Below are positions 2,940 to 49,641 of a DNA stretch of 64,000 nt, in pieces. The first letter of the stretch is position 1. Each line of letters begins with the position of its first letter. Source of the stretch: Octopus vulgaris (taxonomy: Eukaryota). Location of the stretch: assembly GCA_951406725.2 (NCBI GenBank), contig OX597835.1, positions 8,804,001 through 8,868,000 of the forward strand, written 5' to 3'. The notes beneath the pieces were generated by a model, which saw nothing but the letters and a program-made list of their open reading frames with translations, did not search any database and was not told the DNA's origin. The position numbers and the translations under genes were made by a program.

Positions 2940-3145
2940 ATTTATACAATATGTGCCAATTAGTTGGTCGTCACGATAAAACTTAGAGTTCCGGATACCG
3001 GGGCTGAAGTCTGCTCCGGGATCTTCTCAGTTATTAAGACAAGAATTTTTCTGTATAACTGAGGAGATACCGGAGCAGACTTCAGCCCAGGTATCCGACA
3101 ACCAACATATGTATAGATAAATTCCTCTATTTTACATAATTGTTG
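2940..3145. mobile_element. short HHR-bearing PLE-type element as an inverted pair
   Basis: 43-bp inverted arms 2992-3034/3055-3097; arm consensus ATAA-CTGAGGA-GATACCGG..CCGGTATC-CG(A)AAC; flanks homologous to the 38340-38575 element; adjacent to (TA)n. Confidence 0.65.
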
Positions 3146-4779
3146 TCATATTATTATTATTATTATTATTATTATTAACATACGTGCATACATACATACA
3201 TATATATATATATATATATATATATATATATATATATATATACACACACAATTGAAAACCAAGAGCGGAATAGAGATGTGTTGAGTTCCAAAATATTTTA
3301 ATTAAAACTTTTTGTACAGCATATATAACAATGACCAACATATGTTTCTACAACACCGACTGAACATTGCTTTTTATGCAATTATACCCCTTAATTGCTA
3401 CAAATCCACCTTAAAATAATCACTGACTACGTTTTCAAACCGAAATTTTTTAAAACAGGCTTCCTGCGTTGATATTCACTCGAAGGTGAAAGCATTACCT
3501 TTTAGAAGTTCAGTAAACCGTCATTGGTTTTACGCAAAGCGTTTCGGCGAAGCTGAACGATATGCAATTAAAAACGTATTTAGTCTGTTTAGAGCAAAGC
3601 AAAAATGTTCACCGTTGTCCCAATTATGAGTTTACAGGTGATACTGAAAGTCGTGAGTAGTAAGTTTCGTTTGTCAGTAATCGGAATACAATCCAACACA
3701 ATACATTTATGCGACTTCTCTTCTCACAGATATAAGAAACTGGACATTGAGAGAAGAATCATTTAATATTTTATTCAACAGAATACAATTATGCGCAATA
3801 CTGTCTTGAACAAATTCTCTCTTGATAGAATACTATTGAATATATCTCTATCGGATTATGCATGAGATAATCCCACTGAAATTTCCCAGAATCCATTAAT
3901 ATTTTATTCGAAGAAATGATTGCAGTCAATCAATTCTCTGCTATTTTCCCGATGTTTATATATTTTAGATGCGATTGTCGTTTTCTGATGACTGTATTGT
4001 CGTATTGTGAGAAACAGAAGGATTTGTTATGAAATATTTAACACACACACACATACACACACACACGCCAAGACACACATATGCGCACACACACACATAT
4101 ATATGGGCGTGTGTGTGTGTGCATGCGAGAACGTCGGTATAACCAGATATTTTTTCCTCTTGAGAAACATTTAAGATATCTTAACATTGTGATGTTAAAT
4201 ACTCAAAATGGTGGATTGTCTTTTGTGCCCAAACAATATTTTTTATTGGATCTCTGAAAGGCTTGTCGTTTTATTCCTCCTCTAAACCGCAATTTTCTTC
4301 CTCCTTCTTCAACTACATCTTCTTTCCTTTCGCTCTTACCATTCCTTCTATCGCATTGTTCCTGTCTTGTAATATCATTCAAATTCATCATTATTTTGCG
4401 ATGGTTAAATGGAAAAAAACTTTCAATCACTACATTTACATTGATTCTAAGTTGATGTATACAATTTGAAATTCAGCATATTTCCATTTTTAGGGCAATT
4501 TTACAGTTTTTACATTTCATTATCTTTTAATTCATATAAATGTACATTGTGCATGGGGAGTGACATTTGTCTTGTGACAGTGGTGGCTCATGATGCCTGT
4601 CTGTCTATCTGCCTGGCCATCTCATCTCTTTTTTTATATATGTATGTGTTTGTCTGTCTGTCTGACTGTCTGCATGTGAAGATAGATAGAAAGGTGGGGA
4701 GAGAGAGAGAGAGAGAGAGAGAGAGAGAGAGAGAGAGAGAGGGGGAGAGAATTATCATCCCCATAAACGTCTTTGGGCC

Positions 4780-4945
4780 AAACTTGGTTTTAAATGCCTG
4801 GTCATGCTCTGCCACCCATTTTTGGTACCAAAGCTATGGTATACTTCATCACTTTGTCACCTTGTGTCATTTCTGCATTCAATGGCATATCAGTGATTTG
4901 ATGTTCCTTACTCTTCCAGCAATGTCCAGCCAAACAAACTACTCA
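4780..4945 (-). mobile_element. possible RTE LINE ORF2 C-terminal relic
   Basis: minus strand reads AGHCWKSKEHQITDM, resembling the RTE C-terminal (F)AGHC.R motif; short and degenerate. Confidence 0.4.
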
Positions 4946-4999
4946 TTTTCTAAAACGAGACACAATGATGTCGAAAGAAACAGTATATATATATTAAAC

Positions 5000-5219
5000 T
5001 TATAATTTAGGGTATCCAAGAGATACCGCCACGCTGGAAATAGCAGACAAAACCTGACTCTAAAACTACATTAAATGTTCATACGGAACCAGGCGAGAAA
5101 CCAAAAAGGCAAAATAAACTAGCAAAAAATGACTGGATAATTCCAGATCCTGGTTTGAGAGTCAGCTTTTGGCTGCTATTTTCAGCGTGGTGGTATCTCT
5201 TAGATACCTTAAATTATAA
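5000..5219. repeat. inverted repeat, MITE-like or fold-back
   Basis: 69-bp arms 5000-5068 and 5151-5219 with about 8 mismatches; 82-bp spacer. Confidence 0.85.
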
Positions 5220-5332
5220 CTTTTATGATAATCATTACATTTGAAGGTTTTTATTCCCATGCTGTCCACTTGATAAGATCGATATTTAAATTAACGATCT
5301 TATCCTTATATACATATATATATATCTCTCTC

Positions 5333-46310: not shown

Positions 46311-48132
46311 TTCCTCAGGAATGTCGAACTGTGATTAGTCATTCGGTTTATATAAAATTACAGCAATTACAGCGCGATAGAAGCGAAGCAGGAAACAGAA
46401 CGCGAAGGAAGTAATGTTAGATGTGTGTACAATATACAACTATTGTATTTGTGGACGTAAAAAGATTTGTTTAGAACACTTAAATACCACAAACTGTAAT
46501 AACAGTATTTTGTTATGTGAGACAGCACAGATTCTGCCGGTGGTGTATGCACCGACTTATATCCTGTTCATGACGTTAATTTAAAACTAGAAATAGAATG
46601 TTTCGTAGACTAATGACTTGTAGACACTTATGATGGACATATTTTAACTCTATTTCGACTGATGAGCCACTGTTTTAAAAGGTGGTGAGACAATATATGA
46701 AGTCGTACTAAAGTGTAGCTGATTTATCATTAGCCACCCACTTAAACTAATTTTAATTAACTAATGGGTGTACCTCTAAATGAACATTCAAATGGTAGAA
46801 AGAAGAAATGCGAATTGCTGTCTAGTCAAACCTTGCTAGCATGGGTAAGGACATCTTATCTTCTTAGTAATAAAGACAAACTTTCTGTTCAATTCTGATC
46901 CGATTGATTATGTTTCTATTGCACGAAATATTAAAGCTAATAAAATAATACAGTATTGAACACTTGATTCAATAGTTTGTAATAAGTGTTTATGAAATAA
47001 GCGACAACTTGAATTTGTTTCTTTGTGAAGCAGTACTCGATAAATCATCTTCAGTATTTGATTGGTACTCTATTTCTTTCAGTCCGGAAAAAAGCTAAGC
47101 AATGTTGACCTCGGTCCAAATTGAATTCAGAATATAAAGAGATGGAAGAAATAAGGCAAAATATGCAGTTCTATATTTAAGAGATGAGGAATTATGTAAA
47201 TTATTTACATTTGACGGATATTCGTCCTCATCTTGTTTGTTGTTAACACAACACTTCTGCTTAGTTACCCTCCAGACTTCATTAGGTGTCTTGGGAAATT
47301 TCGAACCTCGGTTCTCCTCCCTAAGGTATTCTTCGATGTTATTATTATTATTTTTTTATTATTATTATTCAGGTCACTGCTCGGAATCTTATGGTTAGTA
47401 GCTCGCGCTCTTAACCACTACGCCATATATCCGTGGACAATTATGGAGTGAAGTTTACGGCTTATAAATCTTATATTTTCCTATCCTTCCTTAATGCAGG
47501 TTCTCGTATGCTATTCATATCTGCACTCGGTCTGCTTAGGAGGTTGTTGTGTCCTAGCATATGTGCTGCTTCATTTAGTTTTCGTATTTTCCAGAGGTGG
47601 TCTCCATTTTTCCATACATGATCAGCTGTGCCCGATTTATCAATACCTCCTCGTGTCGCAGCTTTGCGATGTTTGTCTAACGTTATTTTGAAGGGGTGGC
47701 ATGTTTCGACTTTGTGTAACCTACGACAGCTGCATGAGATGGATTACATGCAGTTTTTGTAATATTCTCTTCTATTGGTGGTTTTACTCGAAGGAGATAT
47801 TTGCGAAGTGTTGTATTACTCTTGAATATTGTCCTGATATCATATGGGCCGCATATTTTTTGTATATTTACGGAGAGGCCTTTCACATAGGGTAGACAGA
47901 CTGGAGACAGTTTATTAGTTTCATCCTCTCTTTTCTTCATAATTGGAGTGGATAGAAGGTTTTGTGGGTAGTTGTTACTTAAAAGATTTTTATTGAGCTT
48001 GATCATTTCTTCGTGGTATGTATCACGATCGCTACTTATTTTCTTTGATCGATGTTTTAGGCACTGAACATTACGGAAGAATAGGAAAATATTAGATTTA
48101 TAAGCCCTGAAATTCACTCCATAATTGCCCAC

Positions 48133-48205
48133 GGGCATATAGCGTACAGATTAAGAGCGCCTGCTACTAACCCCGAGATTCCGAGTTCGATTCCAAGGAG
48201 TGACC
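48133..48205 (+). promoter_or_regulatory. tRNA-like Pol III A/B-box module inside the PLE terminal repeat
   Basis: about 73 nt; B box GAGTTCGATTCC in this copy; partner copy 47372-47432 (-) has A box TGGCGTAGTGG; anticodon-loop-like CTACTAA. Confidence 0.6.
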
Positions 48206-48255
48206 TGAATAATAATGATATCGAATGAGAACCCAGGTTCAAAATTTCCCCAAGG

Positions 48256-48297
48256 CACCTGATGAAGGCTGGATGGTATATCGGCCGAAACGTTGTG
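48256..48297 (+). ncRNA. minimal type I hammerhead ribozyme
   Basis: CAC-CTGATGA-A-GGCTGG..TCGGCC-GAAA-CG-TT-GTG; canonical core, stems I and II, palindromic AACGTT in place of stem III. Confidence 0.8.
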
Positions 48298-49504
48298 ATA
48301 ACAACAATGAAAATGAGGACAAATATCCGTCAAATGTAAATAATCTAAAGCAAAATATGTTGACCGGCGTTCATCCAAATTTTGACAATCTTTTATTTTG
48401 TCATTTATATGGAAATAATTTAGGAAAAACTATGAAAGGGACATTGCAATTGAGAGCCTATGATGAAGTGGAGATTGCCAGAGAGAAATAAAGTGAAAAT
48501 AAAATAGAGAGATCATTATAGTGAGGCAACTTCTTACATGTCGTTGCTCTTTTGAAATTAAATGCCGAATAAACAGAGCTAATGATTTTCTTTGATATCA
48601 TATTCATTTAGCCACAACTACGGCTAATAATTACAGTATCGGACAAGGAAGTAGAAATTTGGTTGACGCTGTTTCAAGAACGTTTGTACCCAACCGGCAA
48701 ATGTAGTTCAGCATTTTAGAATAGGATTTTAACTAGAAAAAAGAAATCTGCCTCTCCCATTAATGCTAATTAAACAAACTCTTTCAATTTTATATTTAAA
48801 CTCTCTCTCGCTTTCTCTTTCTCTTTCTCCTTCTCTCTCTCTGTTTGTTACACCATCAACCATTATTTAAGTTGACGAAGGAATCGAAAACGAACCATCT
48901 TTCATTTACATACTTATGGTATCGAAGTAGTACCTTCTCACACAAATGGGCGGATAAATCAGATCATCTAGGAAACTAGATGTAAATCACTTTGATTCTG
49001 AATTACACTTGAACGATTCTGAAGATCGGCGTAGGAATGTACACAGATTCAAAATGAAACAAAAATGTTTTTTGAAGTAATTGAATCCTAGTTCCCATCA
49101 AACGTTCAGATGAGAAAACGAACCAAGAATTAGAGTCATTAAAACCGATGATATATACAACAGGAGTGTTTCAGACAAATTATAGAAGTTAGGGAAGATT
49201 AAGAAGAATTCGAATTCAAACGGAAGGATTTGTTGGCATCGATTCTTTGATAAATGAAATTTCTTCCACGCTGAAAGCACAATTAAGATATCGAGGATTC
49301 TCAATCGAAACCAGTGTAAGATATAGTTGTCAATGAACGTTACCCGTAGAAAAGTATACGATAAATAAGAATTTTTCATGTTCCATCTATGAGGAAATGG
49401 GAAATTTAACAGTATAAAATGTTTCTAGTAATATCAAATTTATGAAAGCACACCTGCAATGAAACTCCTCAACAACAATTCATGATAAATAAACTACGTA
49501 TACA

Positions 49505-49641
49505 CAATTGCAACGTGGAAGGTGTTTGTAAGCCATTTAAGAAACACACAAAAGCTGTTCGATTCACTTCAACATTTAAGTTTAATTCGTCAAAATATTT
49601 TCGTCGCTGTGAGACCGCGGATTTTTGTCAGTGAATAGATC
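49505..49641 (-). mobile_element. copy of the 8085-8290 repeat with its 5' ~20 nt inverted
   Basis: reverse-complement match to 8105-8220, then ATTTTTGTCAGTGAATAG in the opposite orientation. Confidence 0.7.

Follow-up and report, generated by a model that had tools for sequence, protein, structure and literature searches.

Background

Why do joints between short inverted repeats in the octopus genome lie just 5' of hammerhead ribozyme (HHR) motifs? The question arises from a stretch of 64,000 nucleotides of Octopus vulgaris DNA (contig OX597835.1, positions 8,804,001 to 8,868,000; hereafter the window). A preliminary description of it proposed that rearrangement breakpoints cluster at the 5' side of HHR cores in four different families, that reverse transcription stalls or switches template on leaving the folded ribozyme and snaps back, and that this amounts to a structure-directed, non-autonomous system of Penelope-like elements (PLEs). 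The formation of inverted PLE ends is described as an unsettled matter (PMC8557442). We think that the clustering of junctions is real in some families and that the ribozyme is probably not its cause; judging from the genomic copies, the hairpins are head-to-head insertions of EN+ PLEs, rather likely made by copying two RNAs as far as their caps and end-joining the copies.

Results

Joint and arm-end coordinates are counted from C3, the first base of the core, taken as 0, and the features of the window are collected in Table 1. The three fold-backs with axes at about 20873, 38490 and 3045 are real: the arms end at about -4 and -1 in the one (20809-20937, 97.7%), at 0 and +4, within the core, in the next (38398-38581, 94.6%), and at about -12 and -3 to -18 in the last (2992-3097, 84.9%). 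The families are, however, not fully independent, since B (38490) and C (3045) are related and have upstream sequence in common. Other features had been misread: the copy thought to start at stem I at 38113 aligns about 70 nt farther upstream, through a TATA box; that placed at 8088 begins at 8071-8072, the usual family start about 16 nt before stem I; and the "micro-inversion" at 49620-49641 is the second-arm stub of a fold-back without its 3' part. The deletion junction at about 42725 does end at the core, but it is internal, the old copy going on upstream, and no recurrence of this deletion of about 130 nt was seen among 20 family E arms. A counter-example absent from the earlier list is the family E head-to-head junction at about 48046, which is upstream of one of its cores by 211 nt and of the other by about 760 nt.

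Table 1. Insertions and copies of HHR-bearing families in the window
Feature	Position	Strand	Remarks
Family C head-to-head insertion	2944..3182	both	joint about 3040-3055
Untailed arm of the same	core C3 near 3030	-	family C
Tailed arm of the same	core C3 at 3059	+	family C
Family D solo short copy	8071..8278	+	from family start site (A at 8072) to tail end
Core of the same	8096	+	G3-C8-type core, here G3-U8
Family A head-to-head insertion	20809..21006	both	in (TA)n target
Untailed arm of the same	20809-20871, core C3 at 20870	-	family A
Joint of the same	20872-20874		joint type found in 2 of 50 listed genome-wide A joints
Tailed arm of the same	core C3 at 20876	+	family A; 67-nt tail ending at 21006
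Family A read-through copy	38041..38215	+	aligned to long copy L429; core C3 at 38118
Upstream part of the same (pLTR and TATA box)	38092-38097 (TATA)	+	L429 alignment
Family B head-to-head insertion	38337..38581	both	joint within core (0/+4)
Tailed arm of the same	38337-38489	-	family B
Untailed arm of the same	38490-38581	+	family B
Old family E copy	42682..42860	-	about 130 nt deleted internally, up to the core; no 5' end
Family E head-to-head insertion	47165..48347	both	joint about 48046; against HHR-proximal joints
Long arm of the same		-	broken GIY-YIG-like frame end (by eye)
Short arm of the same	core 48259	+	
Family D fold-back remnant	49504..49638	both	untailed arm 49504-49619 (-) and second-arm stub
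Second-arm stub of the same	20 nt from 49619	+	family D

The HHR calls rest on a purpose-made descriptor and not on Rfam, no hammerhead model of which appears among the 150 of 164 matches listed for the window at E<=1. The descriptor gave 36 matches scoring at least 10 in 1 Mb against 3 in one shuffle, and together with folds it finds the features of a minimal type I hammerhead (core bases, helices I-III and the NUH site), here a predicted motif with non-canonical features in families A, B and D. The minimal type I hammerheads reported from PLE pLTRs (PMC4209133) likewise have a short or palindromic helix III and core covariations; they are mostly solitary, with opposite-strand pairs 100-700 bp apart in Schistosoma, and the arrangement here is similar. 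Unlike them, family D has a G3-C8 core and family B a C at position 4, and we speak of putative ribozymes; the solitary and opposite-strand motifs would be explained here as run-off products.

Long copies place families A and D on RT/GIY-YIG reading frames. In A, a stop-free stretch of 775 aa matches RVT_1 (E 2e-6, 27.9 bits, below the cut-off of 29.6) and GIY-YIG (E 3e-5), and D matches GIY-YIG at E 3e-5; a single ORF with RT and, at its C-terminus, GIY-YIG thus lies upstream of the pLTR, as in an EN+ Penelope-like element. For B, the GIY-YIG match is at only E 0.087 and RT motifs were recognised by eye, C is tied to B through similarity (the 900 nt inspected upstream, read by eye, revealed no frame), and E has a broken GIY-YIG-like frame end by eye, with no Pfam match for the part tested. 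From the cysteine motifs between RT and EN, again read by eye, the families would seem to be Neptune- or Nematis-like. With such long copies in A and D, and with joints that vary by locus, the idea of a separate non-autonomous system is not supported. All three stem-II variants of D are found alike among long copies (n=14), start-site copies (n=58) and truncated copies (n=62), so that the D mini copies have them in common with the long ones; this does not speak for an independent non-autonomous family with a lineage and a fixed structure of its own. Short products, having no upstream TATA box, are probably dead-end by-products rather than a separate family.

How general is the clustering? In a sample of 100 regions of 10 kb each, taken at even intervals, there were 40 fold-backs, 12 of them from HHR families, and 8 of these 12 have axes within -24..+10 (two with one junction in common), the remaining four lying at -164, -116, -82 and +56. 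Arms end at -40..-1 in 53/105 cases in B, 22/44 in C and 44/63 in D; when B arms are picked by their tail alone, 17/45 end at -40..-1, 2/45 at -100..-41 and 13/45 beyond -100. Breakpoints cluster 5' of the core in families A-D, as had been claimed, whereas K, H and E break far from it. In K and H no wall was seen (some family H "pairs" being miscalled owing to an internal inverted repeat), and 11/38 K arms end at 0..+40, which tells against the capped-start reading. Rows showing the same locus twice were combined according to their context, and low-identity cross-family matches were filtered out; at T-runs, and wherever the reference copy has a variant, an arm end may be off by a few bases, and the 212-arm totals still include L211 (whose joint is that of L185) and L124 (an array copy).

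In two of the families that cluster, A and D, the end is a particular base. For D this is -23, some 15 nt away from stem I, where 389 exact copies stop; the base before this stop, counted by hand in the first 100 listed, is G in 79, A in 11 and T in 10. At the control site -17, which has the same C|AG context, G occurs in 15 of 97 (Fisher p 5e-20 against the -23 site), a comparison set down before counting. Bases farther 5' are unconserved in 30 loci, and lone G's stand inside (TA)n targets. In A, 777 short fold-backs were found genome-wide; by hand tally of the first 50, 19 joints are AGCT palindromes, in 28 of the 31 non-palindromic ones a G immediately precedes a start at -6 or -5, and no templating beyond -6 was seen. 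TATA-like boxes lie 29 nt (A) and 30 nt (D) upstream of the start.

The G excess is modest in B (12 G, 8 A and 11 T at -25; 16 G, 11 A and 27 T at -20, several cases being ambiguous); about eight B arms extend beyond -25 by 2-13 nt, and a TATA box at the right distance is absent. Family C gave just three pattern matches, two with G. All G counts from pattern listings are hand tallies of the rows listed, and G is common at other ends too (26/68 against 12/18, p 0.036, in a first, post hoc count). The start sites of B, C and D also resemble 3' splice acceptors. In assembled contigs of four runs, which cannot show starts, three uninformative joints were seen on the B element, none into the B site. 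We think that the extra G is likely a copied cap and that the stop base may be the transcription start; the fixed G at the joints of A and D would then likely come from two RNAs being copied by the enzyme as far as the capped start and from the fusion of these copies.

The pairing of the arms follows a simple rule. Exactly one arm is tailed in 69 of 71 pairs (B 39/40, C 11/12, D 19/19) and in 31 of 33 further D pairs, the D pair counts leaving out L211 and L124. Tailed and untailed arms differ by about 60-66 nt in length and yet end alike (median ends -12/-15 for B, -8/-8 for D), although in C some difference between the ends of tailed and untailed arms was found (n=9, p 0.02). Length-limited truncation by an enzyme of low processivity was rejected for B and D because the ends coincide despite this gap. 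Joints carry microhomology and templated inserts, and inverted 5'-truncated copies lie in AT-rich or microsatellite targets. Duplications of 11-14 bp flank 7/18 D fold-backs by eye; a script filter, which was too strict and whose set of 18 leaves out L211, L124 and L125, found them in 3/18 against 1/306 mismatched pairs.

Discussion

That the fold-back junctions are products of PLE reverse transcription, as first proposed, is borne out, and so is the view that they are not cleavage ends, the predicted cleavage site being the end of only 1/212 arms. It is the role given to the ribozyme that we consider improbable. An enzyme stalling or switching template on the fold, with the cDNA snapping back, would account for the cluster at -40..-1 in B, C and D, for one H joint (L306) in register with an extended stem (by eye) and for one C arm (L103) that resumes at the predicted cleavage site; the stop in A is the first base of stem I, so that A alone cannot tell start from structure. 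However, the 3' entry of the ribozyme is the end of just 4/212 arms and none of 73 B-D pairs snaps back in stem-I register. The D wall lies away from stem I and has an extra G without counterpart at internal ends, D ends are flat from -25 to -6 (10, 9, 10 and 13 per 5-nt bin) with no separate stem-I peak in these bins, and K, H and E break far away. Nor do we think it likely that the RNA 5' end at the wall comes, instead of from initiation, from events at a 3' splice site of the pLTR, be they splicing, recapping or a branch-point block. The walls of D and B/C do lie in acceptor-like context (a pyrimidine tract and AG, with a branch-like motif in D), a candidate branch A at about -38 lies close to where the longest arms of the B cluster stop, and the Penelope intron of D. 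virilis is reported to end at helix I (PMC4209133); D arms, however, retain the AG itself and one G, with no conserved exon-1 sequence beyond, and A has its TATA box at the canonical distance without AG-acceptor context there.

Could one template per insertion suffice, a single cDNA or an antisense RNA priming itself and being copied back? Self-priming on an antisense template has been proposed for head-to-head PLE palindromes of Adineta Penelope (PMC3846280), and the arms of most pairs are of the same subfamily (32/40 in B, about 27% expected; 11/19 in D, about 33% expected), which a single template predicts too. This is nevertheless unlikely in our view: L421 and L422 of family A have an extra G on both arms (1 nt apart in L421), the arms of L060, L079 and L137 differ in haplotype at linked sites (later gene conversion could mimic this), the G stands at the sense-strand 5' end, and either arm may be the longer. 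To MITE-like or master palindromes amplified as units we give almost no credence. One joint was common to nearly all 19 distinct loci of the first A search, yet this proved to be ascertainment through the query, that type making up 2 of the 50 joints listed of 777 beside at least eight others; a flip-flop master palindrome in A was rejected, and with B and D joints varying by locus and arms asymmetric the idea is largely refuted.

In the two-RNA reading, which we prefer, a PLE protein dimer would nick both target strands and two cDNAs would be primed on what may be two sense RNAs, each copied towards the capped start, before host end-joining, presumably repair of the microhomology type, fused the two cDNA ends. 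The two arm ends may correspond to the pair of internal RT start sites known from in vitro work. Priming near the transcript start would yield short cDNAs of about 60-210 nt, and if a long transcript were primed on its downstream pLTR, the arms would break kilobases away; joints would fall just 5' of the HHR because in these families it is the first structure of the transcript, 6-25 nt after the start. Whether such a double-ended, target-primed reaction on two RNAs is the default PLE insertion, strong-stop products seeding the hairpins, we regard as evenly balanced; with each dimer half bound and committed to one internal start site, exactly one tail would result.

The EN+ PLEs with an inverted 5'-truncated copy and an optional tail (PMC8557442; PMC3846280) share with ours the head-to-head layout, palindromic joints, a tail at one end, a pLTR with TATA/Inr-like elements, AT-rich targets and TSDs of about 10 bp. 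They differ in that here there are hundreds of very short cases per family under a near-obligate one-tail rule, tails measure about 60-67 nt against 30-40, and the cap-like G's point to sense templates in contrast to the antisense self-priming of PMC3846280. For PAc (Poseidon, Anolis), PMC11167929 describes both strands being cut and extended, two RT start sites, a predicted dimer and dispensable HHR cleavage; like our proposal it has two tail-defining internal starts and an uncleaved RNA template, but its main text does not derive inverted insertions or 5' joints, which are read here from genomic copies. Non-LTR retrozymes (PMC7229834; bioRxiv 10.64898/2026.07.22.740005) are likewise PLE-derived, HHR-bearing, short and non-coding, but are described as head-to-tail tandems with cleavage-defined circles, whereas short copies of A-D begin upstream of the core and occur singly or head-to-head; with the exception of a D tandem of two units in a 5.2-kb array (L122-L124), A-D form no such tandems, and head-to-tail junctions and units characterise family H only. 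In L1, an extra G marks capped full-length insertions, and full-length or twin-primed ones also show microhomology joining and two RT products (PMC11702581); L1 twin priming, however, copies two parts of one RNA, whereas in our case one and the same 3' segment, from fixed starts, recurs in both arms.

Conclusions

Inverted PLE insertions were already known, and the new part appears to be the evidence for caps and two templates; we found no prior statement of cap-marked, two-template PLE joints in the openly accessible articles searched. The octopus genome offers hundreds of independent readable joints per family, which give a base-exact prediction of the transcription start and the one-tail rule, and which point to a two-template model testable in vitro with the PLE system already in use. 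What repeat libraries list as HHR-headed mini-elements or as palindromes may have arisen as by-products of autonomous PLEs and not be MITEs or retrozymes, and the hairpins may be a source of double-stranded RNA. If the two-RNA model is true, short "strong-stop" products from the 5' end of the transcript would seed near-perfect hairpins and lone ribozyme motifs by the hundreds to thousands, and one mechanism would explain why PLEs have inverted ends and asymmetric tails and why solitary minimal hammerheads are in excess in the genomes of animals.

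Arm ends and the hammerhead-like core

Each site of the preliminary description was checked individually and every family was sampled across the 2.8-Gb genome, with whole-genome counts obtained by exact sequence patterns and an unbiased set of 100 evenly spaced 10-kb regions (1 Mb in total). Positions are counted from C3 (= 0), the first core base of the hammerhead ribozyme (HHR)-like motif; family letters are our own (A to E in the table, F to K from the window and the 1-Mb sample) and L-numbers are loci outside the window. All three fold-backs (head-to-head inverted arms) proposed in the window are present. 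The two presumed 5' starts were misread, the supposed micro-inversion is the stub of a fold-back's second arm, and the deletion junction is internal to an old copy, with none like it among 20 family E arms. The breakpoints do come from several families, but B and C are relatives and thus not fully independent.

The idea that breakpoints cluster 5' of the core holds strongly in A, B and D and to some extent in C, but weakly or not at all in K, H and E. Of 40 fold-backs in the unbiased megabase, HHR families account for 12, and eight of these 12 axes lie within -24..+10 (two with a common junction), the others being at -164, -116, -82 and +56. Where only sequence lying 3' of the core was used to pick arms, their ends fell at -40..-1 in 38/49 (D), 17/45 (B, with 2 in the next 60 nt and 13 beyond -100), 8/50 (H) and 5/38 (K). 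Family A has 777 fold-backs with <=14 nt separating the cores; over the initial 70 Mb of one chromosome there are 29 short ones, besides about 20 candidate head-to-head pairs with 0.3-10 kb between their members, of which the two inspected are true long inverted arms. Family F, with no fold-back in 36 arms and a start often 75-85 nt before the core, may move differently from the others.

Features of the window and of selected loci
Feature	Position	Strand	Remark
Family A fold-back	20873		joint about -4/-1
Family A copy	38113		extends ~70 nt further upstream, across a TATA box
Family B fold-back	38490		joint 0/+4
Family C fold-back	3045		joint -12/-3..-18
Family C arm	L103:~1600-1640	+	whole core missing; resumes at predicted cleavage site
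Family D copy	8071-8072		begins here, not at stem I (8088)
Family D core covariation	8096		G3-C8 type (here G3-U8)
Family D second-arm stub	49620
Family E internal deletion	42725
Family E copy	48259
Family E head-to-head insertion, new here	near 48046		joint 211 and ~760 nt from its two cores
Family E tRNA-like segments	48123-48205, 47370-47440		also L244, L228, L192
Family F HHR-like motif	~11850-12010	-
Family A stop-free RT + GIY-YIG stretch	L429:4052-6376	-	after acceptor-like site and microsatellite-rich sequence
Tandem array, D fold-back + second D copy	L122-L125		5.2 kb; both lie within the repeat unit
Tandem array of dispersed repeat	56954-58879		10.5 copies, 184-bp unit
5S rRNA gene match	59822-59940		110.8 bits
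~450-bp dispersed repeat, copies 1-4	1138-1594, 6825-7270, 14364-14811, 24575-25009
~450-bp dispersed repeat, copies 5-7	29579-30024, 32140-32597, 40107-40546

The other 28 of the 40 fold-backs in the 1-Mb sample (L151-L250) match none of the HHR seeds, some recur (L197, L235), and they could be HHR-less PLEs or MITEs.

Identity of the elements

Long family A copies run into a stop-free 775-aa stretch matching RT and GIY-YIG, those of D include a GIY-YIG frame, and those of B have frames of the RT and endonuclease-like kind, weakly matched in Pfam. The elements are endonuclease-bearing Penelope-like elements (PLEs), with the HHR-like motif within the pLTR, where such motifs are reported in PLEs (PMC4209133). 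The motifs are minimal and in part non-canonical, were not among the matches listed in an Rfam scan of the window, and have only putative ribozyme activity. A separate non-autonomous family, as formerly proposed, is not what we see in D, since short and long copies have all three stem-II variants in common.

Long copies of A, C and D contain extended microsatellite-like regions, and in L429 the acceptor-like site and microsatellite-rich sequence ahead of the frame suggest a retained intron. Core covariations (further loci L401, L182, L225) include U3-A8 in H and I, and variants of B, F and K have C at position 4. The tRNA-like segment of family E, recognised by eye from A- and B-box-like stretches, follows the end of a GIY-YIG-like frame and precedes the HHR. 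Several fold-back arms terminate at or near its head, and it may be a Pol III promoter that the pLTR has captured.

Extra G at the arm ends

An initial post hoc count (G before 12/18 pyrimidine|purine ends vs 26/68 other ends, p 0.036) was followed by a test set down in writing ahead of the family D count. There, the stop is at -23 in 389 exact copies, and 335 show a templated C instead, most of 17 sampled loci of the latter type being long read-through copies. Among the first 100 listed of the 389, the preceding base is G in 79, A in 11 and T in 10, with no conserved sequence further 5' and with lone G's within (TA)n targets; a control site of the same sequence context gave 15 G in 97 (p 5e-20). 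Of the first 50 listed family A joints, 19 use an AGCT palindrome and 28 of the remaining 31 have G directly 5' of a -6 or -5 start; no arm of these 50 is templated past -6, and wherever the start is at -6 (21 joints) the partner arm breaks off precisely at a G of its own. The G excess is smaller in family B (12 G to 8 A at -25; 16 to 11 at -20).

A TATA-like box lies 29 nt upstream of the start in A and 30 nt upstream in D, inside a microsatellite-like tract; B has none at a fitting distance. The TATA and splice-acceptor readings follow the usual consensus motifs. An extra G is a recognised mark of reverse transcription through the cap in L1 insertions, as reported in PMC11702581, and we infer that the G-marked stop bases correspond to capped transcription starts.

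Mechanism

We think that these hairpins probably arise from two nicks at the target and two cDNAs, one from each of two RT start sites, which would run off at the cap if priming is close to the transcript 5' end and would then be trimmed and joined. The PLE PAc is reported to cut and extend both strands in vitro and to begin RT at two internal positions, which set the tail; it is a predicted dimer, and HHR cleavage is described as not required (PMC11167929). PLE transcription starts have been located in the pLTR (PMC2377424, PMC8557442), and the HHR would lie close to the joint because it lies close to the transcription start. Exactly one arm per pair carries a tail (~60-67 nt) in B (39/40), C (11/12) and D (19/19, and 31/33 further pairs). 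End coordinates are equal for tailed and untailed arms in B and D, from which it follows that position, not length, sets the arm end; family C departs from this (n=9). At the joints the arms are fused bluntly, through microhomology, or with a single extra base or a templated insert between them, and direct duplications of 11-14 bp surround 7/18 family D fold-backs by eye (3/18 with a stricter filter).

The cause put forward originally, an RT stall on the ribozyme, we now consider unlikely, and prefer run-off at the cap: only 4/212 arms stop at the ribozyme's 3' entry point and 0/73 pairs are joined in stem-I register, while the earlier point that joints are not cleavage ends stands (1/212 at the predicted cleavage site). 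It is equally improbable that splicing or recapping, and not the transcription start, defines the RNA 5' end, even if the B-D sites resemble splice acceptors and the Penelope intron ends at helix I. To self-priming on a single template (proposed in PMC3846280) we give no greater credence. Arms are of the same subfamily in 32/40 (B) and 11/19 (D), far above random partners, as would be the case with one template or with one active source locus; against a single template, however, the arms of L060, L079 and L137 do not match at linked diagnostic sites and G occurs on both arms in L421 (1 nt apart) and L422 (4 nt apart), favouring, at least in some events, two separate run-off cDNAs. The splicing or recapping and the single-template alternatives each substitute just one step of the cap run-off explanation. 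Amplified master palindromes seem very improbable.

Family H has head-to-tail units and an extended stem I (L285, L288, L289, L291, L300, L310, L306), and L306, with its joint in register with that stem, is the sole structure-guided case seen. The L103 arm is a single possible case of a jump across cleaved RNA.

Head-to-head structures are an already known PLE trait; our literature searches did not find the cap signature at single-base precision, the rule of one tail per pair or the two-template evidence for PLEs. The cap and two-template account as a whole is what we infer at the DNA level, and these three features make the question of mechanism testable.
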